From: Bugula neritina
Taxonomy: Eukaryota > Animalia > Bryozoa
Reading direction: 5' to 3'
DNA length: 64,000 nucleotides
NCBI GenBank assembly: GCA_964035545.1
Contig: OZ037765.1
Coordinates: forward strand, 8,504,698-8,568,697
Shown here: positions 14,349-63,719 of the stretch, in pieces
Position numbering within the stretch: position 1 is the first letter of the stretch
Layout: every line of letters begins with the position of its first letter
Notes under the pieces: model-generated
Databases searched by the model: none
What the model saw: only the letters and a program-made list of their open reading frames with translations
What the model was told of the DNA's origin: nothing
Position numbers and translations under genes: made by a program

Positions 14349-16394
14349 TTCTTTATCTTATAGCTTTTCTAAGCACAAAGTTAAAATGTACATCAAAATA
14401 ACAACTTGCTAAAAGTAAATTTAAGTCAAGGCGCTATATTTTTAATCGAGCTAACTCAGTAAGTGTAACATAATAACAAATAAACAATACATAATACTAT
14501 TACTAATAGTAATACTATAAGTATAAGACCAAGAATAACGCCAACACAAACAGTAAGTGTAACCCAGTCTGAGCCTCGCCAACTCAAACTGTGCAGCAAA
14601 AACACAATAGTCAAAATGAAGAGGTAACATCAACATCATTATCTGACTCTACTACTGTTATAGTACTACTCTAGTACTCGTCTACTAGTACTAGTACTAG
14701 TAGTTACTGTTAGTACTAGTAGTAGTAGAAAGATTCAGTAATAGTAATAGTAAACGTAATTTTATAACTGTTGAATTTGTTATACTTATTAATATTATAA
14801 ATATAATTACTAAAACTAAAACTCAGTAAAAGTAAATCACTAGTAGACGTACTTAAACTCAATTTGAATTACAATAGTCATTACGAATACTAATAGTAAT
14901 AGTATTAGCATTGACTAGTGTTATTGTAATTGTAATTCAATTTCAAATTGAGTTTAACAATAACTACCGTTACTACGTCTAACTCTATGACTAGTCTATT
15001 GCCATTGGATTGGGCATTGGCTATGCCTAAATTACTATAAAGTATAAAGTGTTAAGATAAACATAATATTAACTTCAGAGACAATAACCCAAAGCACACT
15101 ATCTAGACTCTAGAGCAATCAATTATCATAGCTGAGTATAAGTATTACTATTAGTAAGTGTTTCAGAGTGAGATTGTCAGTTATTGTGATGATTATTATA
15201 CCGAGTTAAAATTCAATGATTACGGGTTCAGATTAAGCGCCTAGTAAATATTCCTAAGCGAAAGATAATACGCTAGTGCGAACACTTGCGTTCCTTTATC
15301 GATAGTTTAGCCTATGAAGCCCTGGGCAACATTTTCGCCAAAACAAGTTTGAGAAAGTCAAACTGGATTTCCTACTAAAATTTCCAGAATAATAGACAAT
15401 AGTAGTAGAACTAGCAGTAGACGTAGTAATACGAATAATAAAACTTAAACTACTCAGTCATAATTGATATAATAGTGAAAATACTAATAGTGCTTGATCT
15501 AAAGCCTTGTATCCTGTAAAGACTTGAAGCTAAAAAGCTTCAGTTTTTACGGCAGCGACAGAGCTAGACAGGTAAACTAAGAGTTTTACTGTAAGACTAA
15601 GAGTAAGAGTGGCGGCGATTGACTTTCAGTTTCACGTTCAGTAACTAAGTAAGACTAAGAGTAAGTGTAACTCAAGCTGTAGGAGTAAAACTAAGAGTAA
15701 GTGTAACCCCAACATTAAAAATGTGCCATTTTTACCTACTCTTCCACTTGTGACATTGTTACTAAATATCAGCATCACTATGAACAGTGAAGTATTAGTA
15801 TGAGTATGACTATTTTATTAATATTAGTATTACTATTAGTAACACTAATTAGCATTATCATTATTATTAGTATAACTGTATAAATATTAGTATTAGTATT
15901 ACTATTGCTATTAGTATTAGTATAGGCATTGCAGTTGCTCACTGTTACTATTAGTATTAGTATTAGTATTAGATTTAGACTTAGTTTTACTCTTAGTATT
16001 ATGTAATATGAGTATAACTATAACTTAACTATGAAAGTATAACTCAGTATTACGTTATTACAGTATGAGTTTGAGTATGACTGATAGTAGTATTACAACT
16101 GCATGTATAACCTGGTTATATCATAACAATATGATAAAATTCAAGTATTACTATTATTAATAGTGCAACTTGAGTAAAATCTAACATCAGTATAGTTTTC
16201 ATACAGGTCAATAGTATTTTGATGAATATGTTTTATAGCATTGCTATATATGTTTATGGCAAAATTGTCTACTTGGTTTACATGTTGATTAGACGTAAGT
16301 GGTAACTAAATATGTAGTCTAAATATGGGCATCATTGATTCTATTTATAGATAACGTATACAGCATAAGAAACGAGCATAAGATACAGACCAAA

Positions 16395-24335: not shown

Positions 24336-25478
24336 GTTCCACTCATGATGATAGACAAGTTTTACTAGTACTACAGAGATTTTTAATCAATGGACTCAGT
24401 AATGCCAATTATAAACTATTTTGCGTTATGGTTGAGAAATGCATAAATAATAAGATCATTTAAATAATTTATGCTTGCACGTGTAACTAAAACTAGGAAT
24501 TCAATAATTAAATTAAAATTTAATCATTATGATTATCCTGAAGATTATGATTAACAGATTATGATTATAAATATTAAATTTAATAACAATATAATTAATT
24601 AGTTCTATTATTATTATAATTATTAGTAATTATATTATTATTATTAAATAATTATAATATATATCATTATTATATCTCAATCTTAGACTTATGATTATCA
24701 TCATCAATAGATTTAATATTAATAATAATTCATTAATTGCATTTACTTTTACTTTTAATCATTAGACTTAGTGATTAGTCATTAGACTTAGTCATTACAG
24801 TTACTGATAACTCATTTACAATTACTAGGATGATTATCAAAATCGATGTCACATCACAGTAAATGTAATCACTGTCAGTGTCTATGAACTTTATCAGTTT
24901 GAGATTTAGTCTATCATTTAGAGTTGGGGTGAGAGTCTATTATTATGATTATTAGTCTAACTATCTTAAGTCTCTGAGCATCACAATAACTATCAGTATA
25001 AGTATGAGAATTATTCGTATTCAGTGATGAAAGTTAAAGTTTGCTTCAGTATCACCATGATTACCAATCTTATAGTTATTGAATAACTATAAAACAAAAT
25101 TTAATGATAAACCATTAAGTCAAGGTCCATGATTAGGTGCCAAGTGCTGAACAATTACTAAAACTATCATTACTTTTAGTTGATTCCTTACATTTAGTAC
25201 TATTATAAGTATTAGCATTGTTACATTATTACAATTGCTTACTCTATTTCTCACCTAAATTATATAACATTTTCAAGCTAATTTTACAAGCAACTTGTGG
25301 TTAATTTATAGCAATATTTATTTGGCATATGCTGAGCAATCTTCCAAACTATACTTCTCATCTGCTAAATTTTGTGTTAATCGCCTAACGTGGTTGTACA
25401 GATCTAATGTTTTTTACAGGTAGAGGTACCAATGCACTTTCTATAACCCACCGCCTTTAGCATCATTATGATGTTAAA

Positions 25479-28400
25479 ATGTCTCAACAAGCCAAACAGC
25501 TTCAAGAATCTCAAGTTACGTTGTCAGAGGAATTTTTGGTTAATTCCCATAATGCTGGCATCACTGTATTGCATTGTCCTGATTGTGATTATTCTTCCCC
25601 CAACAAACATTATCTAAGACAACATATAGATTTAGTCCACACTAATGAAAGGCCCTTCAAATGCCCATTTTGCGACTATGCAGGAAAACGTAGTCATTCT
25701 TTGAAAGAGCATTTGATTGTGCATAGTGATGAGCGACCTTTTAAATGCACGCAGTGTAATGCGAAATTTAGGAAAAAGGGCCACTTGACAAATCACTATA
25801 GACTGCATTCAGAAACTCCTGTAGATTGTCCCCTATGTAAATATATATCGTTTGAAAGCCGCAATGAGTTATATCAGCATCTCCGACAAGATCACCAAAG
25901 TCAATCAGGGGTTTCTATTTTTTGTTGCAATCGTTGTAATTTTGCCACAACAACCAAAGGCAATTTGCTGGTTCATGAGATGGCTCATACTGATTATCGC
26001 CATGTTTTATATATGAAGCCTAAGTTGCCACTAACAACAAATATTGTGCTCAAGTGTTCTGAGTGTGGTTTTGAAACCACTCAACGCAAAGAGCTGGAGA
26101 AGCATGTGTTGGAGAAACATATGGTAAATGTAGTTCTAATTTTGAATATAGCAGTTTTATTTTGTGGTTTCAACTTTACATAAATAAAATATTTAATCAG
26201 AGTTACCCTGTCAGCTTCTAAAGATAAAAAATTTTTAATTCAACTTGCCAAGTTTTGATGAGCTTCAGATTTGCTACTTTAAATTTTTCATGTTCAAAAA
26301 CAGAATTTGTTTGCTGAGATTTCCTTTCACCAGCAATTGCTCAATTATAATTTATATGTAGTGAATTGGCAAAAAAATTTTATGAGTTTAGCTGTAAGGG
26401 CATATTTATACCAAAGGAAGCAATCACAGAGAGGTTTAAACAAGCACATTCCTGTTTAAGCCTGAATTATATGTGTTTTATTTGTAGATGTCCTACAGGA
26501 ATATCCAACCTGATATCAATTCTAATGAGTCACCCATAGTTTTGGGTTCTCCAATGTACAAATGTACTGAATGTGGGTTTGTTACTTCTGATCACAAACA
26601 GTTGCTTGTTCACGCTTTTAGTCATAAGCAATCGGCCGGTAATAATAGGAATTTGGAGCCGATGGATTCTTATGGGAAAGAAGATTTATCGACAACGACT
26701 GCTCCTGGCTCATACGTTTGTTCTATATGTAGTTATTTTTGTGATTCTCAAAGGACATTGAAAGCTCACATGTGGAAGCATTCAGGGCATAAAAACTTGG
26801 AGTATCCAACGTTTCAAAATGGGCCTTTGAGCATTTATGACGATACCCCTTTTGCAGCCAAAAATTTTGTCAGCAATAATCAACAATCAGAAGTTTTACG
26901 TGACGTGAAAAACAGTGCAAAAAATGTACTTCTTTTGGGTTACGCAAAGCACAACAATCAAGCAGTTGCTTCTGTTGATACAGCAGTACAGGCAGAGGAA
27001 AACAGTTCACCTCGTGTTGTTGTACAGCAGTTGATAAACCCAGAAAATATTTGCACTATAGGCACTGGTAGAGTGAATAACTGCTCTCCATTAGATGAAG
27101 ATATACCACCGGTTTCAAATGCTAGAAGGATGAAGCCTGAACACGTAATTGAAGAAGTTGTAAATCATCTTCAGGGTGCAGTTGATGACCCGTTAAAGGT
27201 CATGACAGCTGTGTGCGAGGTAGCGGAGAGGCGCCCTGTTGAAAACAATTTAGCGATTTCCGATGTTCCGTCGAAACTAAGGATAAACTCTGACTCATAC
27301 AGTGCAACTGAAAAGACTGCAGCGACTCTTTTGAGTTTGCTTCGTCAAGGTAAGAGTATGAAAAAGATATACTTTTACAAAGTTGTTAAAAACTTTAGCT
27401 TTTTTATAAATACATTTATTTTACAGGTTACTATTTTGATTGTGTTTTTATGTTCAGGATATTTAATATTGAGTTGTCGACTACCTATTCACATTTAGGT
27501 AAAAATGTTGACCCTACAAGTTATACTCATGAAGTAGCAGAAAGTCATGCTACTGAATCTCCTGATTATAAGAGTGTACCAGTAAGTTCCATAGTTGGAG
27601 ATGTTGCTTTGGAAGAAGTTGTAGTATCTGAAGCCGCCAGCTCTAGCAGTGATGTCTCTTCTGCAGAAAAACCCAAAGCTGGTTAGCTGTTCTTTTACAT
27701 TAGATTTAGTGCATGGATGTTTTTGCTGTCGTCTCATTTAATGAATTAAATTCCTCGGTTTACTGATAGTGTGAATTTTACTATTGAAGGCATATGCAGC
27801 TCACTTTTAGCAGTCATTGAGCAACTGAGAGAGCCCCATACTGAAGACATGGTTTTGGCATCGGGCTCTAAAGCCAAGCGGAGAAAGAAAAATGAGGATG
27901 TGAGCAGTGAAACGGTAGTGAAAGTTACTTATGTTTACTCTTTTGTAGCATTCATTTCATATGATTTGATATAATGCTTTTCAACTAAAGTGAAGTTTGG
28001 TCATATTTAGTTCTTGTATGTAGAGTTAATAGATGTGGCAAAATAATGCTTTGTTATGTTTTTAAATCATTTGTAGAATTGCAGTTTATGTTGTATTCAA
28101 GCTGCAAAATTTTGTGTCGAGTTTTTAAGTGCAAGGTATAGAGAAATAAAGACAATGATGTATGATCATTTTTACTAGAAAATATTTTCTTATGACTAGC
28201 TTCAATTTTAGGAAATTTTATGAATGCTTCAATGTTATCACCCACAAAATTATTTAATAACTATAAATTAAAATCAACAGAGTTTTAACTCGTCCGTGCT
28301 AAATCAACAACTTAACAAATTAACACACACAGGGAATTGTTGAAGCATCATTTGATTAAAGCTCAAAATATTTGAAAAGTTGAGTATGCTGTCCTATAAT

Positions 28401-32469: not shown

Positions 32470-33110
32470 CATTATGATTATCATTATGATTACTATAACA
32501 GTATAAATATAACTATTACTATTAGCATACTCATAGTCATACTGATACTGATAAACGATTGTCATAGTGATAGTCATACTCATACTCATAGTGATATCAC
32601 TGATACTGATAGTCATACTCATAGTGTGATACTCATAGTCATACTCATACTCATAGTGATAGCCATAGTCATAGTGGTAGTCATACTCATTATCATACTG
32701 ATACTGATAGTGATAGTGATACTGCCATACCAATAGCCTGGTAGGGATACTCATACTGAGAGTGATACTGTCATACTCATACTGATACTCATAGTGATTT
32801 TCTAATAGTAATAGTAATTTATGATTATATACTAATAGTAATACTGATAGTGATACTAATAGGCGATAGCGGTAGCCGTAACGGTAATGATACTCATACT
32901 TATAGTCAAATCTATGTCATTGTCATGCTGATACTGTTACAGTTACACCTACAGTCGCATTGCCCGGATAATCATACTCGTACTATTATTGATCAATGAT
33001 TTAATTACTGTAACTGTGAGTAATCTTGGCCTTGCAAATATCAAAGTCTTGTTTGAGTTATCATAATGATAATATAAATTACTATTAGTATTACCATTGG
33101 TATCATATTT
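32470..33110. repeat. Degenerate hexamer tract (TCATAC/TGATAG/TCATAG/TAATAG family) upstream of the CTR9 start codon; representative of similar tracts at other gene 5' ends
   Basis: Clear 6-bp periodicity, e.g. tcatag tgatag tcatac tcatac tcatag tgatat; produces the spurious YHYDYE/MSMT ORF at 32341-32754. Confidence 0.8.
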
Positions 33111-43528: not shown

Positions 43529-45556
43529 GCTTTAGTTGGTTGATGGCGTATAGACTTTTGCCAACATAAGGCTACAAATAAAAAATAGCTTAGACAGTCA
43601 TACAACAGCAATAACAGCAGTCTTACAGCGTTTACAGCATTGAGGTTGTTTTTCATCATGTGTAGAAATATGCCGAAATCAAATTTTAAAAAAATAGAAA
43701 TTTAGTGTTTGATTCAAATATTATACATATCATTAGCCTTTGTCAAGCATAATTTATTTTGATGAGTACTATTATCTGAAACAATGCTGATGTGTAAAAC
43801 TAAAAGTAAATGCAAAATAAAAATAAAAATTGATTAGCTTAGAATCGTACTTATAGTTATAGTTATTCGTCAAATCTTAACGAAGACTAAAAGTCAAACT
43901 TGAAGACCAAGATAAATATAAAATACCAATAAGCAATAACTATAATTATAAGTATAACTGTAAGTATAAGTAAAATGCATTTTCACATCTCCTATTACTA
44001 TTACTATTAGTAGGACTATTAGTATTATACTTAAAATTACTAGGCTATTACTATTAGTATTAGTATAACTGTAAATATTATAATCATATTCATTAAATTT
44101 AATAATAATATAAATATTATTAACATTATCATTATAATTAATATTTATAATTATATTATATTTAACTAAATCTAATATTAAAATTGTATTATAATTATTG
44201 TTATTATAATTATTATTATGTTTACCTTTACTTCTAGTTTATTACCTCAGTTTATTACCTAGTGATTTACAATTACTGATAGTCTTAGTTAGTGATAGTA
44301 TGACTCATACTATTAGTATTAGGCTACTATTAGTAATAGTATTCAGACTGTCATACTATGAGTATCAGTATGAGTCAATCATCAATCATAATATTTCATT
44401 CTCAATCACAATCACAATGTCATACTGATACTCAGTCTCATAGTGATAGTGATACTCATACTGATACTTATACTTATAGTTATACTTATAGTTATACTGA
44501 TACACAGTGAAATAATTTTGAAGTAATAACTTATGCTAAATATAATACTAATACAGTAATAGCATTAGTATTACTATGACCATTGGTAATTATTTAGTAT
44601 TAGTAATACTAATAATAAAACTGCGCCTGCTGTAATTCATAGTAATTCGTACTTGTAATTGAAATTTGCCAGTTCTCACTTCAACTAGTGTAACGGAAAT
44701 ACTCACAAAAGAAAAAAACCGGATCTACTACTCATAACATAAAATGTTTCTTTTGTGAAGTCTCCCAACATGTTACTAAGAGGAGGTAACTTTATAATTG
44801 TATTATATCTTTTCTTGCTTTCAACACTGAAAATAATTATTTCAGTGGTTTAGTTGATTGGGATCTTCAGATTTAAGGTGGATGATGTTCAAACAGGATT
44901 GTCCTCTTGAAAAATAAAGATTTGTTAAGATAATGTCTTAAGTGCTACTTAAAGTAATGTTATGTTGAAATCTTGGGAAAGTGACAACTACTGTGAATGT
45001 TATTTTGACTATGCTTTCCTCTTTCAGCTGTCATCTCGTAGTTTGGTTTAGTATAGTATAGTATATATAGATGCAAATTAGATATTGAGTGTGCTAAAGC
45101 TAAAAGAATGGCAGTTCATTTATTTATACAAATGGCTATTTATATGCATCAAAGAAGTTATGTCAGAAAATAGGACTTGTAGCAGTAATTTTATTTTTTT
45201 AGGTAGCAGCTATTTAGCGTGCAGTTGAGGTAAATTATCTAACAAAAACAGCTACATTGTATTCCAGGTAAAAAGGGTCATGCAGGTAATATAAGTTTAT
45301 AGATGGTGCTGATGTATTTTTGTGTGTGCTAAGCAGTTCACATGAAGTAAACAGATTCATCGTGAAAATGTAATTACCATAGTTTAAAATTAAGAAATAA
45401 GACATTATAATATTATAGTGTATCTTTACAAGTTTAATTTTGTAATTTACATAATTAAAGCATCAATATATAAAAGCTGCGTTTAGTCATTTACATCATC
45501 ATAATATATAATGCATGTCCTCCTTTAGGGAAAGATGCTAATACTCAACTATCCAA

Positions 45557-48500: not shown

Positions 48501-51500
48501 ATAAAACATTACACACATTATCTTAACCTTACAGCACACAACTATGCATGCTCAAACACACTTTCCTTGTTTTATATTTCCTCAAAGTTTCAAAATCCAA
48601 ACCACAATTATTGACAATTACTTTTGCTATTACAAATTAAACACAAATATGTATACCTGTCATGTGTAGGGTTTGTACTCATCACGCTGTGCACACCTTT
48701 GGCTGTTTCCTTTACATCAAGAAAACCCTCACTTTGCATTTCCGTCAGAAATGGTCTCAACTGCAAAAACAGAAGCAGATGTTTCACCTGCAGTGGAAAA
48801 ATTTGAAAAATGAAAATATAATTACACGCAACCTCAACTCAAAACTTATACCAAAACAACAAACCTTTTTCCATTTAGTTTTCTTAAGATCTAATGTTTC
48901 ACCAGGTGGACTAAAACACAACCACACAAATAGCTTATGCAAAGATGAAACATGGAACTAGCAAATATTCAAGAGCTGTTGCTAGGAAAATAACTAATAC
49001 ACTTACATTTACAATACGACACCTACTTACCAGCACATCTACAATACGACACCTACTTACCAGCACATCTACAATACGACACCTACTTACCAGCACATCT
49101 ACAATACGACACCTACTTACCAGCACATCTACAATACGACACCTACTTACCAGCACATCTACAATACGACACCTACTTACCAGCACACCTACAATACGAC
49201 ACCTACTTACCAGCACATTTACAATACGACACCTACTTACCAGCACATCTACAATACGACACCTACTTACCAGCACATCTACAATACGACACCTACTTAC
49301 CAGCACATCTACAATACGACACCTACTTACCAGCACATCTACAATACGACGCCTACTTACCAGCACATTTACAATACGACGCCTACTTACCAGCACATCT
49401 ACAATACGACACCTACTTACCAGCACACCTACAATACGACACCTACTTACCAGCACACTTGAACAAAATCTCGAAAGAAGGCAGACGTCAGCATAGGAAG
49501 ACTCGACTGTTTTACTTTCTTCTTCAAGGCATATAAGAAACACTGAAGCAACTTGGTGTCTTCAGTTAGCTTACTGAATTCAGTCTCTTCTCCTGTCTTA
49601 GTTTCAATAACATTACTGGCACCCAAGTTGTCGGAAACGGCAGCATCATTTAATGCTGACTCGCCAGTAGTAACTGAATCAACACCAGCAACACTAGTAG
49701 CTGCAACTTCACTGGAGTCTTCAAGCCCACCATCAGCATCACCTGCACAAAGTGTGAGGCCTTGTGACTGACTCGCAGAATGTTCAGTTCCATCTACAAC
49801 TCAACCAACAATAAACCTTTTCTACTAGTGTTTAGCAAATACAGTGAAGTTTGAATTTTATACATCAAAAATAATTGACAAAATGTATCTTTTATGATCG
49901 AGTTAAATAAAACATGTATAGGGTTTTTATATAAAATATATAGAGATTAAATTTCGATTTACCTGCTGTTTGTGCAGGTAATTCGAGGGACTGTATAGTG
50001 TTTGTCATATCTTCTATTTCATGGACTGAAGACTCTATTTCAGGTATATTCGGTACAGATACTTTACTGCCTAGCATCCTATGTACCCAAAACATAAATA
50101 GAACTACTGCAACACCTCTGGTATACAACAAGATATTCCCCGATACATGTATCAATATTTAAGTTATCCAATCAAGAGTATCCAAGTTAGACTCAAGTCT
50201 ACACCACATACTCACCATAAATGATCACCGTAGTAGTGTCTAATAGCCACACCTTTACCTCGCATACCAGAGCTGTACATAGACTGACCGTCCATGCAAG
50301 TTTCTCCTATAGCTAGTGCTGCCCTTACAAAAAGCAAAGATCAGCAAAGTTATAAATCTGGGATATAACAGTCAGTCATTGTTATAGTGGTAAAACCATC
50401 AGTCATTATTATAGTGGTGACATCACCAAAGATTTACTAACCTGTTACCCACAGCGTTTACTGCCACAGCCATGGCTGACCTTATATGAGAGAATGTATC
50501 GGGTGTAACTTCACTCTTGGAAACCACACCCGGCAGCATGAGATCTGAAAATAGAAATAACTGCATGCACATGCCCACCATACAATATATTGAATTTGTC
50601 AACGACTATTAGTTGGACCACAGTTTGAATAATTAAAGTAATATTGATAATGATAACTCTGAGGGCAATTATCCTTTTAGGATGTGCATGATTAGAGGCT
50701 CAGCAGTGCTATTTTTCGGATATATGTCTCTGGCCAATTATTCTGAAAGCTGGCAAAATATTACCAAAAAATAGATAAACAATGCTAGCTAAAAAAAATC
50801 TCTTTACCATGAACTTCTTGAATCTTTATATTGTTCATAACAAAAGGTAAGAAATACCCATTCTGCTATAAGATACGCAGAGTAAAGCTCCCTACCTGCT
50901 CCACCATATATCTTGTTAATGACTGGCAACCATGTAGCGAACGAGTACAAACATTCAGGGTGATTCCATGCAGTATACACTAGATTGATAAATGAGATAA
51001 TGTTAATGATTTATTATCGACATGAAATATGATTTTAGAAATCAGCAAATATAGTCACTAAGATGAGCAACAAATTATAATAAAAAAAAATGATTATTTC
51101 ACAAAGCATTTAGAATTTAATAATTGTAAAACAGAAATACTTACCAGAAGGGTAATAGATTTGAGCAAATTCAAAAAATACTGGTTGCTTTGCCGTCAAA
51201 ATAATAAAAGCTGGCTCCCCATTATGCAATGAGACTCGCACTTGTTGAACATCAGATTTTTGAGGTATTAAAGTTGTAAGTATGTCTGGAGTAAACAGTG
51301 GAGACTGAGCAGAAATTTCAGCACGGATTCTTTTTCTAGTAAAATATTTAGCCTTAGTAATCTTTGTAAAATATGCATTAAAACTTATTTATTACAGACA
51401 TAATTTAATAATATAGCATGAAATAATTGCGATGTTTACACATTTGAACTATTCATTAGATACAAATAATTTTTTTATTGCTGTAGCTCTTCAATTCCTA

Positions 51501-52285: not shown

Positions 52286-54401
52286 TAAGAGTAAGTATAA
52301 GTGAAAGTATATACTATAAAATGAATTCATTAACTAACTTTAAACACCAATAAAACTATTCTTTATCATACTTAACGAACAACTAAATCACCGCAATTAT
52401 TAGCATTAAATTTAGTATTAGTATTGCATTCACTAATACTATTAGTATTAGTATTTGTCTTTAATGAGTAATGACACCGTAATCGGAGCACTACTGGTAC
52501 TAGTATTACTAGTTCCTGCTCGTGTTACTGCTAGTTCTATTACTAGTACTACTACTGCTGCAGTTACTACTATCATTACAACTATTAGTTGTTGCCGTTA
52601 ACTTTCAACAATCACAAAAATCAAAGGAAATGTCAGTCAGTCTCAATGTTAATTTTTAATGCTTATACCGACATCAAATTCAATATAAATAGTAAATTAC
52701 AAAATGGAAATGATTCTGATAACTCATACAGATACTCAGTCTCATAGAGTCCATATTGATACTGCTAGTCATACTTATAGTTAATGTTATACTCATGGTG
52801 ATACTCATATTTAATTTTATACTGATGGTCATACTCATGGGATAGTCTAAGACTAAGAGTAAGTTAGTAGTACTAGTTACTGAAATCGAATACTCCCATT
52901 CGCCTTCGGCATTCTCATTCGGCATTCAGCCATTCTGATTCATAGAACACTTGGGAACACTTAAGAAGTGCCTCGTTTGTTTTAAAGTGTGAGTATAGGC
53001 TAATAATCATAATGATAATGTAATACTAACTCTAAGTCCAAGCACTAGCAGTAATTCAAATTGATACCGATTAGATCTGGTGGTTGGATTAATTATTGAA
53101 TTTGATTTGGTGTCAGTGTAAGTGCTACTACTAATACTGTATTAACTGCTAACTCTAAGTAAAAGTTACACTTTGACCTACAGTCACACTCTGACTCACA
53201 GTCAGTGTCACTGTCTCACTCTCACAGTCACTCTCACTCTGAGTCTCAGTCTGATTGTTGCATTTGTAGATGAGGCGTTATCTTTTTGCTCTCAGTAGAA
53301 GAAAATATTTTTGATTCCGTTACACAGATTATTTTTACGTTTTACTAACAATTTTTAATATTATCAATATTTGTAATTACAATTTGATATAATATCATTA
53401 TACATTTATTATTTTATAAGAGTTCTCAACGAGTATTCACTCACACATTCATTCGTGGAATAGCTCCATATCCATAAAAGCAATAGAAATGTGTTATCTG
53501 AAAGCTCTGTAAGAACACATGCTTTATAGTGGGATAACTCTATATAATATAAAAATTATCTAAGAATAATGAGTTAAATTTCAAAGTCTATATTTATGCA
53601 GAGTTATCTTCTTCCCAATGCCTGCAATAAAATCCTATGCAGCATTCAGTGCAATGATCATTTATGATCAAATTTATGACAATAATGGTTGCATTTGACT
53701 TCGTGAATTTAACGTCCGCCCACTAGCTTGATCCTAACCTGTTATTCTCCACTCATGTGGGATACAAAAAATTACGCGAAGACGTCTTGTAGTTTCATTT
53801 CCGCGATACTTTGCATTAGGTGTGATTCTTATACTTATACTAAAATTGTTTATAAAATTAAATCTATCAATATGTAAATTAAATATTATAAATAACCCTG
53901 ATTGACATTTGACATGTATTGAATTGTGCTAATGGATTATGCATGCAAACATCAATTCATCATTTTAATTGATCTTTAGGTATGTTACTGTGAGTGTGTT
54001 CGTGTTACTGTTACTGTTAGTCTAAGTCTTGCTAAATGCTGGTGTGATGTTTTCACTATCAGTTTTGCATTCAGTTTCAGCATTGTCATTGTGCCATTGT
54101 TAATCGTAATGAAAAGTTAATGTTATACTTAATCTTATAAGTTATAGTTGATATTGTAAAACATTAAAACTAGCAGTTACTGTTAGTGTTACACTTACTG
54201 TTAGTGTTACATTGAGTGTAGCTGAATCAAAAGGCTGAATCATATTATTTATATTCATGTTTAATTTGAGTATTCATATTCATTTCATCATTTGGAATAC
54301 GGGTAGGGTTATTTAATTTTATAATAATCTTAATATTATAATAAATATAATATAAACCATAATCTAATACTAATACACTTACAGTAATAGTAATTCAATA
54401 T

Positions 54402-54813
54402 TGTTGTAGATTCGCACAAATATACCCTGTCCTTGTTTATTTTAGAGTTATATTCCCTTGCGCACGTTCCTTTTTTTTTGTTATTATTATTATATGTAAG
54501 CCGAGACTCGTGCGAGGTCGGAGCCCGAAGACGCGATATCGGAGGGGCCTGCCCGAGATCGGGCAGGTCTTCCTCCGATGTCGGTCGGCGGAACTCCGAC
54601 GTTCGCGCGAGTTTCGGTCCCTCATTAAGTGGCGGGAATTTCCCCCTATATAAGTACGAAGTTTTTAACAGAGCAATCAGTCTAACACTGGAGCTCACAG
54701 AGGAAACATCAATAAAGACTATTAGAATCAATATTTTACAAAGACTTTATTTCTATCACAATAACTGGCATGCAGACTACTAGTCTATTCTTATAATCCA
54801 CAAAATCACAACA
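54402..54813 (+). repeat. 5' LTR
   Basis: Direct repeat of 61889-62300; TATATAA 54647-54653, TCAGT initiator 54677-54681, AATAAA 54711-54716. Confidence 0.97.
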
Positions 54814-54814
54814 T

Positions 54815-54832
54815 TGGTGGCAGCGGTGGGAT
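54815..54832 (+). other. Primer-binding site complementary to tRNA-Leu 3' end
   Basis: TGGTGGCAGCGGTGGGAT, 1 nt after the LTR; reverse complement ATCCCACCGCTGCCACCA matches the 3' end of animal tRNA-Leu(AAG/TAG) as I recall it. Confidence 0.88.
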
Positions 54833-54885
54833 TAGAATAGACTAGTACGACAAGCAGCCATTAGAGAGAAAGAAAGAACAGCACA

Positions 54886-55836
54886 ATGGGGGACGAAGGA
54901 GAAGCAGAAGTCATGGTAGAAGGAGAAGAAGAAGTCATGGTAGAAGGAGAAGAAGAAGGAGAAGGGGACCGTCTCACCATGGAGACTCTCATCGCAGCCC
55001 TCCGGGAGGTCAGCAAGGCCGGGCAGGCAGCACCTGGAGACAGGTATCGCCTGAGGCCCCCGATTTTCGGAGGCGATGGGGACATAGAGCAATTCATCAG
55101 GGAGTTTGAAGAGGTAGCCACCCTCGCCGAATGGCCGGCACCGGTGCGCCTTCTTCACCTCCGTACCTGTCTGACAGGTCAGGCAAAGAGTTATGCTCTG
55201 GGACCCAATACAGCGCACATCTTTCAGGCCCTCAGGTCGCGTTTCGGGCTAACCGCCCGCGCCGCCAGGGACAAATTGCGCACCATACGCCGAGACCGGA
55301 AGACCTCACTCCAAGACCATGCGAACGCTATTGAGGCACTAGTACCAGTAGCCCATAGCGACGACACACCGGCAGCACAAAGAGGTGCTGTGTATGAAGC
55401 CTTCTTCCACACAATCAATAACCCTGGACTACAGCGTTATTACTTGGCAGCCAAGGTCACCACTATAGAGGAAGCCTTAGCCCTGGGCAAGGCTTACTAC
55501 CAAGTGGAGGGACCTCAATGTGCGGATTTCACCGCTTGTCAGATTGAGGAACGACCCGAAGTCGCTAAGCCGGATCAGCCAAACCCACAGGCCGTGGCGG
55601 CTGCTACTACTTCGTCACCTGACCAGATGACCATGCTGATGGACATGGTAAAGGGATTGCAGGCAGAGATGAAACAGATGCAGAGAGAACAGGCTGATAA
55701 ACGAAACCCCCGACCCCGGGGTGAACCAGCCGGTACTACCCACCTCACCTGCTGGGGGTGTGGTGCCAGGGGACATGTACGAAGGCAATGCCCTCACGAA
55801 AGAAGGATGCCTTTAAACACCCGGGGCTCGCGGTAA
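54886..55836 (+). CDS. gag: Gypsy Gag with CCHC zinc knuckle
   Basis: Capsid-like PPIFGGDGDIEQFIREFEEVATLAEW..LTGQA..ALRSRFG; knuckle CWGCGARGHVRRQC; 24-bp acidic repeats at N-terminus. Confidence 0.92.
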   Translation: MGDEGEAEVMVEGEEEVMVEGEEEGEGDRLTMETLIAALREVSKAGQAAPGDRYRLRPPIFGGDGDIEQFIREFEEVATLAEWPAPVRLLHLRTCLTGQAKSYALGPNTAHIFQALRSRFGLTARAARDKLRTIRRDRKTSLQDHANAIEALVPVAHSDDTPAAQRGAVYEAFFHTINNPGLQRYYLAAKVTTIEEALALGKAYYQVEGPQCADFTACQIEERPEVAKPDQPNPQAVAAATTSSPDQMTMLMDMVKGLQAEMKQMQREQADKRNPRPRGEPAGTTHLTCWGCGARGHVRRQCPHERRMPLNTRGSR

Positions 55837-58800
55837 CCTCCGCCAACCGTGAGCCACCAGCCAACCCCATCCGGGAAGAAATGACCCAAGGAGCCTCTTC
55901 CAGGCCAGCCGAGGCTGCGTGGGGACGTTGGAGACCCCAAGGTCTGCCCGACTCTCCAACCCAGCCACCTACGACCCGGATGGGACTCCTAGATGCAGGA
56001 TGGCAGGCACCTCGGAGATCTCGGAGACCGCAAGGTTTACCCGATCCTCCGGCCTGGCCACTCCAAAACCGGTTCGCGGGGTTGCCCGAAGAGGCTGTGG
56101 AGGAAGAATCAGCTTACTCGCAAGAGTATCCAAAGCTACCCTCCCAGCCTCAGAAAACCCCCGTTGTCTGTAAGACGAAGAGGAGGCCCGCTGTAAGGAC
56201 CCAAGAGGTGTCCCCCCCAGAGACTGACCGACCCAGGAGCACCCAGCCGTATGGAAGCAGCTACTTCCTGCCCGGAAAAATTTCGGGTAAAGCTGCCACC
56301 TTCCTGCTGGACACAGGGTGCACTACAAACCTGCTAAGTCGGCGTCTCTTCGACACCCTTGGCGCCCGAGAGCGGGCGAGCCTCGAGCCATACGAAGGAG
56401 CACACGGTACGTTGGCGGACGGATCGTGTATCCCCTTCTACGGCATTATCACACTACCTGGACGAGTCCGTGATCAAGTAATTCACGAGACGTTCATTGT
56501 CAGCCACCTGAAGGAAGACGCCATTCTGGGAATGCCCTTTCTGGAGAAACACCAGTGTCACATGGATTTCCAGAAGTCGGCGGTGGTGATGGCTGGGAAG
56601 GAACTTGCCTGTGTGGACAAGTTTGGTAGGCCCTTGGTGGGCGGAGTCCAGGTAGTGCAGGACTGCATGATTCCAGGGAGATCCCAGGCTACTCTCCGAT
56701 GCAGGGTCAACTGCAAGGAGATCGCCGCACTGGGGGTGGTGGAGGGAACGCACGGAGCAATTCGACTGGCAAACAGCCTAAATCGGCTGGACTGTCGAAG
56801 AGAGCTCCTCGTGCAATGCATCAACCCCTTTGCGGAATCGGTCCGATTATCGGCTGGTGCACTGGTGGGGAAGTACCACTCCATCCATGAGGCGGATGTG
56901 GGTCCGGCACTGGAAACAGTGACCGACACCCAGGGAAACCCCCCTCACAACCACCGAGAAGCAGTCCCGGAGCATGTGGCTGGCTTGTACAGTGGAGCGT
57001 GTGGAAACTGTACGAGTAGTACTGAACGCCAAACACTGGCTCAACTACTCGCGGAGTACAGTGATGTCTTCAGTCGTGGTGATGAAGATATGGGGCTGAC
57101 TAAGGTTATCTCCCACGAGATACCCCTGGCAGCTGGCACCACTCCCATCAGGCAGCCAACCCGACGTCTGGGCCCGGAGAAGGAGAAGGAGGTGAGCCGG
57201 CAGGTGCAAGATCTTCTCGACCGGGATCTGATTGAGCCTGCCCACGGTGCGTGGAGCTCTCCAGTAGTCCTGGTCAAGAAGAAGGATGGTAGCTGGAGGT
57301 TCTGTGTGGACTACCGCAGACTCAACAGCGTTACCATCCAGGACGCTTACCCCCTTCCGCGGATAGATGAGTCTCTGGATGCCCTCGCGGGTAGCAAGTA
57401 CTTCAGTACTCTGGATCTGCTTAGCGGGTACTGGCAAGTACCCCTCAGTCCTGATGCTCAGGACAAAGCAGCATTCATTACCCGCGATGGGCTCTGGAAG
57501 TGGAAAGTACTGCCGTTTGGACTTACGTCCGCCCCGGCAACTTTCCAAAGACTCATGGAGCAGGTCCTCAGTGGGTTACACTGGAAGACCCTCCTAATCT
57601 ATCTGGATGACGTCATTGTCATCTCCCCAGACTTTACGACTCATGTCAGTCGTCTGCGGGAGGTCTTTGACCGACTCCGGGCTGCGGGACTGAAGTTGAA
57701 GCCCTCCAAGTGCGCACTCCTACAGCAAGAAGTCACGTACCTGGGCCATGTGGTTGGCCGTGACGGGGTCGCTACCGACCCAGAGAAGGTACAGGCTGTG
57801 AAGGAGTGGACCGTCCCCCGGGACCTCTCCGAATTACGGGCATTCCTGGGCCTGGTAGGGTACTACAGACAGTACGTACCCGGGTTTGCAGGAGTGGCTC
57901 AACCCTTGAATCGGCTAACCGCAAAGGGGGTCCGGTGGCAGTGGACACAGGAGGAACAACAGGCATTCGACCACCTCAAACAACGGCTAACAGAGGCGCC
58001 AATTCTGGCGTACCCTGACCCAGCCAAAGAGTACATCCTGGACACCGACGCCAGCGACCACAGTGTGGGAGCTGTTCTGTCTCAAGTCCAGGGTGGAAGC
58101 GAGGTGGTCGTGGCTTACTACAGCAAGACTCTCGCGGCCGCCGAGAAAAACTACTGCACCACTAGGAAAGAACTCCTAGCAGTAGTCAAGGCGGTCAAAC
58201 ACTTTCGGCCATATCTGTATGGGAGAACGTTCCGGTTGCGAACAGACCATGCATCACTGATATGGTTGTGTAAACGTGCAGAGCCCTCGAGTCAGGTGGC
58301 CTGTTGGCTAGAGATTCTTGCCGAGTTTTCCTACCGGATAGAGCACCGTGCCGGCAAGAAACACGGGAACGCTGATGGCATGAGTCGCCGACCGGTGGAG
58401 GACTGCAAGCAATGTCTACACATTGAAAAGCGTGATGGGGGACCTGCCCGCCCTGACGTCGAGGCACAGTTGGGAGACAATAACGTCTATTATTGGGAAC
58501 ACGGCCATCTTCGGCCTGAAACCCACTCAGACGACGTCCAGGCACTACGTGCCAACCCCACACTGTACCAGAACGTCAAGGAGCTGTGTCGACTGCAAGA
58601 AACACTCCCTGGATCGGTAGCTGACATTTTCCGAGCCAAGAAAAGAGGCAGCCGACCCTCGGAGGAACAGCAACGGCAGGGAGACGCTGAGTTTCAGTTC
58701 TTCTGCCGCCGCTGGAATTCTCTCCAGATTCGTTCAGACGGCCTCCTAACGATAACACTCGCAGCAGACAACCGACAACAGGAGAGGGATCGCGTCGTAT

Positions 58801-59921
58801 GCCCACGCGCTCTCCGTCGGGAAATCATCTGGGACACCCACAAACAGGCCCATGCGGGAGCCAGTCGGGTCATCAGATGCCTGCAGATGCGATGGTATTG
58901 GCCCGGGATGACCAGGGATGTGCGACTGAGAATTCGGCACTGTGAAGTCTGTCAGGCTAGCAAACACGGGCGCCCCACCGAAACCACGGGTCGGCGCCGG
59001 CTATACGCCGGCCGGCCTTGGCAGGTCGTGGCGGTAGATCTCGTGGGACCCATGCCCACGACCGAAAGGGGAAACTCCTGGATCTTGGTCCTTACAGATC
59101 ACTTCACACGGTGGGCGGATGCCCTGGCTATTCCCGACGCATCGGCACCCACAGTAGCCCGAGTCCTGGACCAGCATGTGTTCTGTTACTTCGGCCTACC
59201 GGAGCAGATACACACCGACCAGGGCGCCCAATTCCAATCACAACTAATGAAAGACCTCTGCCAAGTATGGGGGGTGAACCAGAGTCGGACCACCCCGTAT
59301 CACCCCCAAGGAAATGGGGTGGTTGAAAGAAACAACCGGATGTTGGGTGATGCTCTCCGGAGCCTCTTGTTGGGAAGGAGTCAGGAGGAGTGGGACGTCA
59401 TGCTACCACAGATTATGCGAGCATATCGAAGCACCCCCCACTCCAGCACACAGGAAACACCGAATCTGATGATGTTGGGCCGAGAAACCAGGGTACCAGA
59501 GCACCTCGCGTATCACATTCCCAACCCAGAATTCCCAGTGCACGAGTACGTGGGAAGGTTAGTCGGAATCATGCAGAAAGCTCATGATGCACTGAGAGAG
59601 AAACAGTGGCTGGTACGAACGGAAGATCCCGAGGAACCACCTCTGTATCGCGAAGGGGACTGGGTGTGGATGGTCAGCTACCGCAGGCGGCGCGGACAAT
59701 CGGCTAAATTACAGCCTAAGTTCGTCGGGCCCTACTGCGTGGTAGAGGTTTTACCAAACCATACATATCGTGTGGAACGCTCAGGACAGATATCTGTTCA
59801 AAACGAGCAGCGGTTGAAACCTTACCACGGAAGCCCGGAAGCCGCAGGACAGGCACCACCACTGTTGGAACCAGCACGACAGCCCATCTCCCGTGGGAGG
59901 ATGAATCAACCCCGAGAATAG
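55758..59921 (+). CDS. pol: Gypsy Pol (protease, RT, RNase H, integrase), probably entered by -1 frameshift near 55812
   Basis: FLLDTGC; WRFCVDYRRLN, LDLLSGYWQV, LPFGLTSAPATFQR, YLDD; LDTDAS, ELLAVV, TDHASL, NADGMSR; H..H/CEVC, VAVDLVG, IHTDQG, NGVVER, KFVGPY. Confidence 0.97.
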   Translation: MWCQGTCTKAMPSRKKDAFKHPGLAVTSANREPPANPIREEMTQGASSRPAEAAWGRWRPQGLPDSPTQPPTTRMGLLDAGWQAPRRSRRPQGLPDPPAWPLQNRFAGLPEEAVEEESAYSQEYPKLPSQPQKTPVVCKTKRRPAVRTQEVSPPETDRPRSTQPYGSSYFLPGKISGKAATFLLDTGCTTNLLSRRLFDTLGARERASLEPYEGAHGTLADGSCIPFYGIITLPGRVRDQVIHETFIVSHLKEDAILGMPFLEKHQCHMDFQKSAVVMAGKELACVDKFGRPLVGGVQVVQDCMIPGRSQATLRCRVNCKEIAALGVVEGTHGAIRLANSLNRLDCRRELLVQCINPFAESVRLSAGALVGKYHSIHEADVGPALETVTDTQGNPPHNHREAVPEHVAGLYSGACGNCTSSTERQTLAQLLAEYSDVFSRGDEDMGLTKVISHEIPLAAGTTPIRQPTRRLGPEKEKEVSRQVQDLLDRDLIEPAHGAWSSPVVLVKKKDGSWRFCVDYRRLNSVTIQDAYPLPRIDESLDALAGSKYFSTLDLLSGYWQVPLSPDAQDKAAFITRDGLWKWKVLPFGLTSAPATFQRLMEQVLSGLHWKTLLIYLDDVIVISPDFTTHVSRLREVFDRLRAAGLKLKPSKCALLQQEVTYLGHVVGRDGVATDPEKVQAVKEWTVPRDLSELRAFLGLVGYYRQYVPGFAGVAQPLNRLTAKGVRWQWTQEEQQAFDHLKQRLTEAPILAYPDPAKEYILDTDASDHSVGAVLSQVQGGSEVVVAYYSKTLAAAEKNYCTTRKELLAVVKAVKHFRPYLYGRTFRLRTDHASLIWLCKRAEPSSQVACWLEILAEFSYRIEHRAGKKHGNADGMSRRPVEDCKQCLHIEKRDGGPARPDVEAQLGDNNVYYWEHGHLRPETHSDDVQALRANPTLYQNVKELCRLQETLPGSVADIFRAKKRGSRPSEEQQRQGDAEFQFFCRRWNSLQIRSDGLLTITLAADNRQQERDRVVCPRALRREIIWDTHKQAHAGASRVIRCLQMRWYWPGMTRDVRLRIRHCEVCQASKHGRPTETTGRRRLYAGRPWQVVAVDLVGPMPTTERGNSWILVLTDHFTRWADALAIPDASAPTVARVLDQHVFCYFGLPEQIHTDQGAQFQSQLMKDLCQVWGVNQSRTTPYHPQGNGVVERNNRMLGDALRSLLLGRSQEEWDVMLPQIMRAYRSTPHSSTQETPNLMMLGRETRVPEHLAYHIPNPEFPVHEYVGRLVGIMQKAHDALREKQWLVRTEDPEEPPLYREGDWVWMVSYRRRRGQSAKLQPKFVGPYCVVEVLPNHTYRVERSGQISVQNEQRLKPYHGSPEAAGQAPPLLEPARQPISRGRMNQPRE
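55812..55855 (+). promoter_or_regulatory. -1 programmed ribosomal frameshift signal
   Basis: T TTA AAC in gag frame (55812-55818), 6-nt spacer, stem GGCTCGCGGT (55825-55834) / ACCGTGAGCC (55846-55855); pol is in the -1 frame. Confidence 0.85.
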
Positions 59922-60500
59922 GAAATAATAGTTCGCGACCCCAGGGAAGTCCATGACACCTCCGACGCCCCCCCACGGAGCCTGCCACCCACTCTACACA
60001 CCCCTGATTTACCCAGTCAGACCAGCCAACCAGAGACCCCCACTTCGCTAACACCGCCCCCAGAGGACCTTCCTTTGCCACCGACGCCTGTCCCAGACGA
60101 TACTCCAAGTCCACCAAACACCCCACATCAACCAAGCAACCCTACCACCCTTACGCTAGGGAGAGGGAGAAGGGACAAGAAACCGCCGGGTTACCTGGCT
60201 GATTATCACGTGGGATACATGGCTGAACTTCACCCTTCGATTCATTACCCTCAACCAGACTCGAATTCAGATTGTCACCCCGAAATAACCATAAATACAC
60301 TGACTACGCAAGAAAATCAAGACCGAAATTCGGAGGCAGCCCGACACCCGGAGTTGTCTGATTTAGTTGACCACTTGACCAGTCACGTGATCGGCGATCG
60401 CACGAGTTTTAAAATTAAAAATCAAAACTCGGCCATTTGCACTTCAACTTTGAACAAATCAACACGCTATTTTAAATTCAATTTAAAAAGTTTGAAAGAG

Positions 60501-61706
60501 ATGGAGCCCGTGACAGTTAATCAGACCCAACTCGCTACGATACCAGGTATTTCTAGCTTACTAGAACCTCCATTCACGGAGTGTAGTAGCTCTCTAGACT
60601 CATTTTCACCCGACTATCAGTGGGAAAATGAGCTGTTCTTTGATCACAAAGGTCAGGACGATGTAGAAGAGTCCCCAGTCCACGACTACCTGCTAGACCA
60701 GGAGGTTGGACGGGTTTCTCTTCGGCTATCACCTGACCTACCCATGTGTCAAAGAGTGCCTTATAAGGAGATGCCGAAATTCGGCACTCCTACGGCCAAG
60801 TCACCAAGCTCTCTGTTTTCTGTTGCAGAAGCCATGGAATGTGAGGAGGTCGGGTCGAGTCGTATCGACTCCCCGGCACCCACAGTTCCCGACCCGGCTG
60901 CTACCAGCCCGCCTGAGGATCCAGCACCAGAGCCTACGCTCACCAACCAGTCGGAAGCAGATACCCCCCCTCCAGCCGACGGTTTCCCGTCCGGTGAGGG
61001 CCCCCAGTTGAAGAGCGAGCCTCCTTACCAACAGCTAGCTCTCCCCCACATCTTGACAGAGCGCCTACACTGGACCACGGCAGAGACCCGTGCCAGGATA
61101 GAGCAGGACTGCGGGGCGGCCGGCAACCGCAAGTGCCGCCAGTGTAGTAAGAAATTTACTACGACCAGGCGACTGCGGGTGCACGTGCCCCAACACTATG
61201 CCAACGTCTTCTGCCCGTGTGGCGAATTCTCTTTTCAGAGAGATTATGTGCTGAGGCATCAGCGCATTGCCCGCTGCCACACGGGCCAGGTGTTTGTGGT
61301 TGACGAGGCGACATTTCCCGAATTTCGGGACTTGATTCTCCCTCACATCGGGGACCCCCATAAACGGGCAACACTCGCCCAGGGATTCCCGGCCTGCCGA
61401 CCATCACAAGATGCTACCGACGACGAGACACCACCTGCGGCCCAGCCAGCCGTCACCCGCCCTCTCCGGGTTGTGTTGGCTAGGGTCGACGGGAATACCC
61501 AGCAGATAGCCAGCCACAAGAGGCGGAGGCGCCAGGACCCTAGGACTCAGGGTTCCACCCCTACCCCAGCAATGCCAGCACGATGCCCCCATGAGACGGA
61601 GGTTCTCCGGCTGCGCCGGCAGGTACGCCGGCTGGAAGATGACATCCACACTGTTCGCCGCCGCCTGGACAGGCTCGAGGGCCGCAGAGGCGACCGTCGC
61701 AACTAA
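60501..61706 (+). CDS. Gypsy ORF3: C2H2 zinc finger / coiled-coil accessory protein (401 aa from the best-context ATG; frame open from 59922)
   Basis: gagATGG start; acidic/Pro-rich N-half; CRQC..HVPQH and CPC..HQRIARCH fingers (61134-61280); KRRRR; C-terminal heptads LRRQVRRLEDDIHTVRRRLDRLE; lies inside the element before the PPT. Start codon is inferred. Confidence 0.8.
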   Translation: MEPVTVNQTQLATIPGISSLLEPPFTECSSSLDSFSPDYQWENELFFDHKGQDDVEESPVHDYLLDQEVGRVSLRLSPDLPMCQRVPYKEMPKFGTPTAKSPSSLFSVAEAMECEEVGSSRIDSPAPTVPDPAATSPPEDPAPEPTLTNQSEADTPPPADGFPSGEGPQLKSEPPYQQLALPHILTERLHWTTAETRARIEQDCGAAGNRKCRQCSKKFTTTRRLRVHVPQHYANVFCPCGEFSFQRDYVLRHQRIARCHTGQVFVVDEATFPEFRDLILPHIGDPHKRATLAQGFPACRPSQDATDDETPPAAQPAVTRPLRVVLARVDGNTQQIASHKRRRRQDPRTQGSTPTPAMPARCPHETEVLRLRRQVRRLEDDIHTVRRRLDRLEGRRGDRRN

Positions 61707-61876
61707 AGGCTACCCTACCCTTATTTCCTGACAATCAGCCTGCTCAAAACTTTATTACATTTATATTTTTCTTAGTTCTCTTTGTAAACTTGTGCAACCC
61801 TAGATATTGTCTATTTGTATTATATATATTTGTTTTTTTTTGTTTTTTTTTTTGTATCGGAAAGTGATGCTTTCCA

Positions 61877-61884
61877 ATAGGGGG
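61877..61884 (+). other. Short polypurine tract
   Basis: ATAGGGGG ending 4 nt before the 3' LTR. Confidence 0.6.
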
Positions 61885-61888
61885 TGTG

Positions 61889-62300
61889 TGTTGTAGATTC
61901 GCACAAATATACCCTGTCCTTGTTTATTTTAGAGTTATATTCCCTTGCGCACGTTCCTTTTTTTTTGTTATTATTATTATATGTAAGCCGAGACTCGTGC
62001 GAGGTCGGAGCCCGAAGACGCGATATCGGAGGGGCCTGCCCGAGATCGGGCAGGTCTTCCTCCGATGTCGGTCGGCGGAACTCCGACGTTCGCGCGAGTT
62101 TCGGTCCCTCATTAAGTGGCGGGAATTTCCCCCTATATAAGTACGAAGTTTTTAACAGAGCAATCAGTCTAACACTGGAGCTCACAGAGGAAACATCAAT
62201 AAAGACTATTAGAATCAATATTTTACAAAGACTTTATTTCTATCACAATAACTGGCATGCAGACTACTAGTCTATTCTTATAATCCACAAAATCACAACA
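61889..62300 (+). repeat. 3' LTR
   Basis: Same length as the 5' LTR, no difference found by eye; overlapping ORF-track translations are identical. Confidence 0.97.
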
Positions 62301-62479
62301 ATATGAATATCAAGCTCATTAACCAAATTCGATATTAATTATAATATTATATTAATATATTATATTAATATGATTTATTAAATTTAATACGTTTGAATTC
62401 TTTTAAAGACATAGAACACTTGAAAACACTCAAAGTTATAGAAGTACCTCATTATTCATCAGTTTTACAGTGTAAACTT

Positions 62480-63619
62480 AATGTTAGGTGGTGATTGTGT
62501 TGATTTTTTACTTTTTTTATATGGACCCTCTTGGGTCTCTCCGAGACACTGCTTTGATGATTGCAGCGTTTGTGGGTTCATCATTTATAAGTTCATCGTA
62601 AGCAGATGTGATCGATTTGTGTTTTTCCTCATGGGACAGAAGGCGAAGCAACAGAGCATGTCTTATTTTTGTTCTTCTCTCTGTTAGGTTTTCTAGTTCT
62701 AGCTGCTCACAAGCTGCTGTCACACTATCCCTCCCTTTGAGGGTTGATATAAATCTTATGATTCCGTGTTGCACCATCTCAATGCCATTTATTAGATAAT
62801 TTAATGTGGTATCCCAAACAGAAGCTGCATATTTAATATGCGGTTTACATAGGCTTGTGTAAGCAAGGAGACAAGCGGAAGCAGGGGTATCATGCAGTGC
62901 GCGTTTAATCATGCTCAACTGTTTTTTGGTTTTTCCAATTTTACTCTGAATGTGTTTGTTAAACTTCAAGTCCGAATAAAGAATGACGCCCAGGTAGCAA
63001 GTCTCCTGCACAATTTCTAGGTTTGTCTTGTTTAGCACATAGCTGGTATCAGAGAAGTTTATTGAACTGCCCTGAACATTTATCAGCATTGAAGGACATG
63101 CAGCACATATTTGCCCATTGTAAAGTGCTTACACATTGTTTTGAAATCTCAATTTATCTTGAGCATTGTTGACCACCTGATAAATGAAGGTGTCATCGAC
63201 AAATAGACTCATGTTGCAATCAACGGATCCGGCAAATCATTAATGTAGGCTAGGAAGAGGGTAGGGCCTAGCACTGACCCCTGACGAACCCCAAAAGTTA
63301 CAGGCAGCTCATATGAAAGTTGCCTTTTAATCCTCACTTTTTGTTTGCGGTCCATAAGGAAGTCATGAATCCATTTCACTATCTGTGTACTCACATTAGG
63401 AATGTTAAATAGTTTTTGCATTAGGGGTTTGTGTGAAACTTTGTCAAACGCCTTTCCAAAGACATGAACTACTGCATGAATATTATCACCTTTGTCTAAA
63501 TGCCTAGCAATGTCGTGATATGTGCCACATAATTGTGTCTCACATGACAGCCCCTTACGAAATCCATGCTGTCTGTTACACGAGATATTCTGCTTATTTA
63601 CGCCTTGTAATAAATGCAA
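62480..63619 (-). pseudogene. 5'-truncated, frameshifted CR1-type LINE ORF2 relic related to the element at 5451-9699
   Basis: RQHGFRKGLSCETQL, FGKAFDKVSH, GVRQGSVLGP, FVDDTF, YLGV, KQLSMIKRALH, YAASVWD, SAYDELIN split across frames. Confidence 0.9.
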
Positions 63620-63719
63620 AGCTTGCCAAAATAACCATTTCTTGTTTCAGTAAAATAAATTTGCATTTATTTTAGGCTCTAAATTTTTAATCCCAGTTAT
63701 CGTATACATAGATGAAATT

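Follow-up and report, generated by a model that had tools for sequence, protein, structure and literature searches.

An apparent Pol-fused two-finger zinc module in a Ty3/Gypsy retrotransposon of Bugula neritina and its candidate role as an integrase tether

The window analyzed here is a 64,000-nucleotide stretch of the Bugula neritina genome (contig OZ037765.1), and the element and the coding features given below lie on its forward strand unless noted. A Ty3/Gypsy LTR retrotransposon occupies positions 54402 to 62300. Its 5′ and 3′ LTRs (54402 to 54813 and 61889 to 62300; 412 bp each, with TG...CA ends) are identical at 412 of 412 positions, and we therefore read this copy as young. A 4-bp target site duplication (54398 to 54401 on the left and 62301 to 62304 on the right) flanks the element, which also carries a polypurine tract (PPT; 61879 to 61888) and a primer-binding site (54815 to 54832). 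We take the latter to match tRNA-Leu, and the same 18-mer is present in a related metagenomic locus, L001 (described below). The gag gene (54886 to 55836) encodes one CCHC knuckle (Pfam zf-CCHC, E = 0.0028, below the cutoff). A slippery heptamer at 55812 to 55818 has the right phase for −1 gag-pol frameshifting, which may be how pol is reached; a hairpin follows it, with a stability that does not exceed that of shuffled sequences (z = −1.07). By Pfam scan and a search for structural relatives, the pol frame (55725 to 59918) encodes protease, reverse transcriptase (RT), RNase H, and an integrase with H2C2, rve, and SH3/GPY-type domains, in that order, and the RT is of the Ty3 type (the best solved relative is Ty3 RT; E = 3 × 10−99). 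Thousands of variant pieces that cover the element are found among the contigs from three runs of a single study.

The window contains several other features. An apparently intact non-LTR element at 5745 to 9517, presumably of the CR1/L2 type, combines, as judged by eye, an ORF1 whose product has a PHD-like Cys/His pattern with an endonuclease-RT ORF of 940 codons, and broken RT fragments of a similar element adjoin the 3′ LTR (62517 to 63646, reverse strand). An exon on the reverse strand (3471 to 4181) encodes a TRAF-type zinc-finger pattern and presumably resembles the N termini of F-box proteins 30/40. A tandem array with a 30-bp unit (48885 to 49580) is open in several frames, and AT-rich tracts with a 6/12-base periodicity lie at 9920 to 10220, 15860 to 16010, 32560 to 32840, 43980 to 44600, and 52390 to 52460.

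Between the integrase domains and the PPT, an uninterrupted frame of 401 amino acids runs from 60501 to 61706. The original prediction had placed it there as a gene of its own; the open frame is real, but it actually opens at 59922 and is the pol frame. From that point, 594 codons are open in the same frame as pol, beginning with the integrase tail. The 193 codons upstream of the Met at 60501 start with a Pro-rich stretch (59922 to 60206) that ends in a basic motif, R-x-R-x-P-P-x-Y-L-x-D-Y (60162 to 60206), borne by relatives at the end of their integrases. An AT-rich linker (60207 to 60500) follows, with no stops in the pol frame versus nine and six in the other two frames. From the tail to the Met, this linker measures 95, 95, and 101 codons in the window and in the related proteins P0003 and P0008, respectively, and is open in all three; each pair shares 25 to 27 identical residues (∼27% identity), with length and frame kept. 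Among 20,000 linkers simulated with the window's composition, 259 were open. The in-frame Met (60501 to 60503) is kept in six of six covering relatives. It is followed by an acidic, Pro-rich region that is predicted to be disordered (60504 to 61025), for which the composition agrees with the earlier description (31 D/E, 9 K/R, and 28 P within 175 residues). An xPYK motif in this region (60756 to 60767) is kept in eight of nine covering relatives as well as in L001 and its near copy L002, where Met residues also occur shortly upstream of it. The frame does not encode an errantivirus-type Env, which has a signal peptide and a transmembrane anchor: as the original prediction held, there is no hydrophobic segment (the best 19-residue Kyte-Doolittle mean is 0.67), and the Pfam scan of the window frames found no env family at E values of up to 1.

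A single in-frame stop (59919 to 59921) within the C-terminal tail of the integrase separates the pol frame from its continuation. Searching with a query that spans this stop gave 23 integrase relatives, none of which ends within about 6 residues of it; 13 of them align over at least 30 residues beyond the stop, and the other 10 lose similarity earlier. The best-scoring relative across the stop, P0028, is 67% identical. We read the stop as a probable lesion restricted to this copy, one that would leave its integrase without the tail and the downstream module. A programmed leaky stop of the subfamily, yielding short and long integrase forms, seems to us very unlikely. It would suit the presence of one stop only in an element with identical LTRs and otherwise intact frames, and it has a precedent in the soybean Copia element SIRE1, where the main text of the report describes one suppressed stop between pol and an env-like ORF (PMC2829016). 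Unlike in SIRE1, however, relatives (P0028 included) do not conserve the stop, and the frame encodes a soluble finger protein; moreover, the frames of L001 and L002 are unbroken, and the stop lies upstream of the conserved tail motif. A read-through RNA structure is not supported, as the RNA downstream of the stop folds no better than shuffled sequences (z = −0.35). The 40 listed differences of 933 between the run contigs and the window include none at 59919 to 59921, which is uninformative about the stop in sister copies.

To return to the frame itself, the original prediction had described a third gene, distinct from pol, at the position of env; among relatives, this region proved to be the C-terminal part of Pol, in one frame with the integrase. 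Two overlapping protein pairs tie integrase to finger in a single frame. P0028 extends from the integrase core as far as the tail motif and there overlaps P0003 (61% identity; E = 2 × 10−15), which continues from the tail motif through the finger into a coiled coil. The same holds in a second family for P0030, which covers integrase and linker, and P0016, which covers linker and finger (53% identity; E = 2 × 10−11). An integrase-based scan of metagenome contigs found five loci, and two of them (L001 and L002) carry the finger. These are near copies of each other, with 52% Pol identity to the window element, and have unbroken frames of 1,744 and 1,760 codons, respectively, that encode protease, RT, RNase H, integrase, finger, basic patch, and coiled coil. 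In both, the finger domain was detected by a profile to which neither had contributed (E = 3.5 × 10−12 and 6 × 10−11). The three other loci are distant (26 to 32% identity) and lack the finger. On these comparisons, the 401 residues encoded at 60501 to 61706 are very probably the C-terminal end of the Pol frame of a Gypsy lineage, the intact fusion being seen in one distant family (L001 and L002) and that of the element's own clade being assembled from overlapping proteins.

The domain architecture varies among the relatives. P0028 appears to pass from integrase and tail directly to a terminal coiled-coil-like segment and lacks the finger, as an internal deletion form would. In the sister families of P0034 and P0035, Pol ends about 90 residues past the tail motif, near S-Y-A-D-x-V-K, with no finger in frame; these are the natural comparison group for finger-bearing families. 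In L002 (5400 to 5620) and at the corresponding place in L001, the acidic spacer that precedes the finger is built of a 16-residue repeat; the two near-identical copies differ there by one repeat unit, with the frame kept.

Searches that started from the finger itself speak against a universal fusion. None of the best 150 hits of the finger profile exceeds 596 amino acids, none of the 43 longer hits scanned has an RT or integrase family, and a search for the finger in proteins of 703 to 2,005 amino acids found none. The absence of RT and integrase is weakened by the sizes of the contigs looked up, mostly 1 to 7 kb, and short contigs together with decayed copies may explain part of the shortage of long finger-bearing Pol proteins. 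The DNA around the finger had no match in metagenome, viral, or prokaryote contigs, and the integrase-based scans had none in viral or prokaryote contigs.

The conserved core of the module is a domain of about 125 residues (61026 to 61406; net charge, +8) made up of a W-x4-T helix, two zinc fingers, a V-D strand, and two helices. Finger 1 (61134 to 61196) follows the C2H2 pattern C-x2-C-x12-H-x3-H. Finger 2 (61212 to 61277) is read as CxC-x12-H-x5-C. Both fingers had been predicted, the second as an atypical CxC..H..H type, but its last ligand is more likely the Cys that precedes that His: among 23 covering near relatives, the Cys is kept in 23 and the His in 14. In the wider family, 50 of 82 members have Cys in the eighth-ligand column. 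Ligands one to seven are present in 88 to 90 of 90 aligned members, the ligands are conserved down to 25 to 30% identity, and four helix positions retain K/R in 74 to 87% of the same 90 members. The finger-domain profile matched 300 clusters at 50% identity (E values of up to 0.001), of which 137 remained at 10−10. No Pfam family scored above the cutoff for the window's domain; zf-C2H2_4 fell below it and matched 12 of the 90 members at E values of up to 0.01. In the atlas, the hits were generic C2H2 families or clusters without a name, and most of the 30 domain members looked up are unnamed or called "hypothetical protein." The protein is conserved and nuclear looking, with a two-finger zinc domain that is not filed in Pfam.

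Structure prediction from the 90 sequences gave a confident model of the domain (pLDDT, 96; pTM, 0.88), which replaced a poor one from 22 sequences (pLDDT, 56). The best structural match, Kaiso (ZBTB33), covers the finger pair only and is weak (Z = 3.9; root mean square deviation, 2.7; 57 of 127 residues), as are the other partial matches to DNA-binding C2H2 pairs, ZNF524 and SALL4 (Z = 3.4 to 3.9 for the three). Domain residues ∼27 to 87 alone align to known finger pairs, and SALL3 was matched by profile (E = 1.8 × 10−5). Finger 1 is a regular C2H2 finger like those of the classical pairs; unlike in those pairs, finger 2 has the form CxC-x12-H-x5-C/H, there is no TGEKP-type linker, and the flanking helices and the V-D strand are conserved. 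Fold searches found no match to the whole domain, and Foldseek found none at E values of up to 0.001, which need not mean that the modeled fold is new. A chromodomain was also looked for and not found: the folded module is a zinc-finger pair, and Pfam scans of the window frames and of the related protein P0051 found no chromo family.

Downstream of the domain, the original prediction had pointed to PLRVVLAR (61461 to 61484) as an LxVxL motif. The LxVxL variant of the PxVxL motif binds heterochromatin protein 1 (HP1). PxVxL motifs are treated as putative HP1a sites in the main text of PMC7655104. We scanned for [LP]xVx[LVIM] (61464 to 61478 in the window), a motif of the HP1-chromoshadow-ligand type, within 100 residues downstream of each domain, with expectations from shuffles; 42 of 111 domains had fewer than 80 residues downstream and were dropped. 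The motif is present in 26 of 32 near domains (at least 40% identity; the window's row included) versus 5.0 expected, alternating between the LxVxL and PxVxL forms, and as the rows are related, these counts reflect conservation and not independent origins. The motif is placed as claimed and kept in near relatives, but in distant domains it is at chance level (6 of 37 versus 5.1 expected), and it is missing from the intact Pol-fused relatives L001 and L002. Farther on lie KRRRR (61518 to 61532), which is in place as predicted and forms a basic patch that keeps its basic character but not its sequence among relatives (a candidate nuclear localization signal), and a predicted C-terminal coiled coil (61593 to 61682; heptad pattern and a subthreshold Pfam hit with an E value of 0.037), with a similar terminal helix in near relatives, distant relatives, and L001 and L002. 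The open-frame scan places the end of the reading frame at 61704 to 61706, and a sister variant at 61705 (run X1) is still a stop. Two other proposed motifs fared less well. The SUMO consensus LKSE is present at 61008 to 61019, but a ψ-K-x-E site occurs in 1 of 23 covering relatives, and we rejected it as not conserved. The SUMO-interacting motif (SIM)-like VFVVDE is also present (61290 to 61307), but in the folded domain it forms part of a strand (pLDDT, ∼99), so a free SIM is unlikely.

The finger domain is also found in bryozoan gene models. Four clusters hold proteins of Watersipora subatra and B. neritina without transposon domains (P0054/P0198, P0142, P0199, and P0202). These uncharacterized proteins (XP_067940963/4 and XP_067944745 in W. 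subatra; KAF6040922/3 in B. neritina) have the same domain once or twice, accompanied in the Watersipora pair by an LSVKL motif and, at the end, a coiled-coil-like helix; they differ from the element in having no transposon domain in the protein. One Watersipora gene model has two domain copies and isoforms, and two Bugula models have adjacent locus numbers. It is possible that these genes are products of domestication, donors of the domain, or gene models laid over elements. A quick tree of 111 domains was for the most part unresolved, with good support for 14 of 106 branches, and did not separate donor from domestication. The homologous genes in two bryozoans would also fit a recently captured host exon that is carried as a functionless passenger. 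We regard this as highly improbable and already largely refuted, as the linkage to integrase is held in families that are 52% identical in Pol, the ligands are conserved across deep divergence, and the last 225 codons of L001 and L002 differ by 10 synonymous and 5 nonsynonymous codon changes. The window does contain exons of a host multi-C2H2 gene (25461 to 27498), but they do not match the profile of the element's finger domain.

We propose, in keeping with the targeting factor named among the candidates of the original prediction, that the two-finger module acts as a tether attached to the integrase, which would bias insertion by binding DNA or chromatin. The module would be made as part of Gag-Pol through the −1 frameshift and, being translated with Pol, would likely be packaged and delivered with the integrase, reaching the nucleus with the integration complex. 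There, the fingers would contact DNA or nucleosomes through their basic helix faces, the coiled coil would oligomerize, and in the near clade [LP]xVx[LVIM] would add an HP1-type chromatin contact. In Ty1, a targeting domain sits at the C terminus of the integrase. The Ty1 integrase with its targeting domain is described in PMC7459421, and putative targeting domains at the integrase C terminus of chromoviruses are described in the main text of PMC3059260. We put the probability of this mechanism as a whole at roughly one-half.

The module may also, or mainly, be a free nuclear regulator that activates the LTR or blunts HP1-type silencing, produced from a spliced or internally started RNA that uses the conserved Met or cut from Pol by the protease. 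This main rival corresponds to the transactivator or anti-silencer of the original prediction; we consider it possible, though we do not favor it, and the two roles can coexist. The Met at 60501 and those before xPYK in L001 and L002, the AT-rich sequence upstream of the Met, and the layout of acidic region, finger pair, basic patch, and coiled coil, which fits a transcription factor, all speak for a free protein. So do the finger-domain hits, most of which are predicted as stand-alone proteins of 200 to 600 amino acids, the bryozoan gene models, and the report, in the main text of PMC5408684, that LTR elements typically have their ORF3s in the form of separate spliced units. A free regulator alone, however, leaves unexplained why a poorly conserved linker is kept open in the phase of pol and why the Pol frames of L001 and L002 are unbroken; a crude scan found no acceptor-like site within 200 nucleotides upstream of the Met (the nearest is at 60257), and the SUMO and SIM motifs are not conserved. 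The foamy virus Tas and VANC proteins are stand-alone ORF3-type regulators, whereas no frame separate from pol was found across this family.

It is unlikely, in our view, that the module is a part of Pol that acts on the element's own RNA or cDNA, in packaging, in reverse transcription, or in bringing the integration complex into the nucleus, and not on the target site. The fusion to Pol is compatible with such a role, as are the basic patches (possible import signals), the nonclassical finger 2, and the flanking helices, which give a compact domain unlike DNA-binding finger arrays. The best partial structural matches are, however, DNA-binding C2H2 pairs, albeit weak ones, the domain is kept in host-like bryozoan genes, and the HP1-type motif suggests a role at chromatin.

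The tether reading has its closest parallel in the chromoviruses, Ty3/Gypsy elements whose integrase bears a C-terminal chromodomain or CR motif. As described in the main text of PMC3059260, these likewise carry an extra module past the GPY/F-SH3 domain, in the pol frame and ending near the PPT, in some families and not in their sister families. An in-frame accessory module at the integrase C terminus is what we find in the relatives of the window element. Unlike chromoviruses, the element has no chromodomain but about 590 further residues with a two-finger domain, a motif of the HP1-ligand type, and a coiled coil, for which the targeting role is putative. Non-Env ORF3s, such as the GDSL, DEDDy, coiled-coil, and transmembrane ORFs of bdelloid rotifers (PMC5408684) and an AlkB ORF in orchids (PMC9289625), also place a captured or shared module between integrase and the 3′ LTR; according to the main texts, those are separate ORFs, whereas the module of the window is continuous with pol in relatives. 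Ginger1 transposases have a Gypsy-like integrase that likewise gained C-terminal domains (OTU, Ulp1, and PHD), but these belong to DNA transposons and the domains are different (main text of PMC2836005). Added domains on the Pol of LTR elements are therefore an already known theme. In the full-text literature, we found no description of a C2H2-type module fused after a Gypsy integrase; this covers main texts, including those of PMC2836005, PMC13524379, PMC5408684, PMC3059260, bioRxiv 10.64898/2026.05.21.726589, PMC7655104, PMC9289625, and PMC2829016, and the elements may be cataloged without comment in Repbase, GyDB, or subscription journals. The word "zinc" does not occur in the main text of PMC5408684, and the main text of a survey of metazoan env-carrying Gypsy elements does not mention zinc finger or C2H2.

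To our knowledge, few integrase targeting modules have been described, namely, chromodomains, the CR motif, and short peptides that bind host factors. At the integrase C terminus, a conserved and folded zinc-finger domain would be a new kind of candidate targeting module, and a retrotransposon might by itself read the DNA or chromatin of its target. The domain can be tested alone, is small, and has a confidently predicted fold, and the sister families with and without the finger offer a natural comparison of insertion sites. Speculatively, an animal Gypsy lineage may have fused an unnamed two-finger domain to its integrase as its own targeting device that reads sequence or chromatin, with the internal Met providing a free regulator as well, such that one module would pick the site and control the new copy, HP1 would be engaged in one clade, and the domain would have passed between elements and bryozoan host genes. 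We hold this full scenario to be doubtful. The bryozoan homologs pose the question of capture or domestication, and if the scenario is true, the module would be a zinc-finger counterpart of the chromovirus chromodomain.
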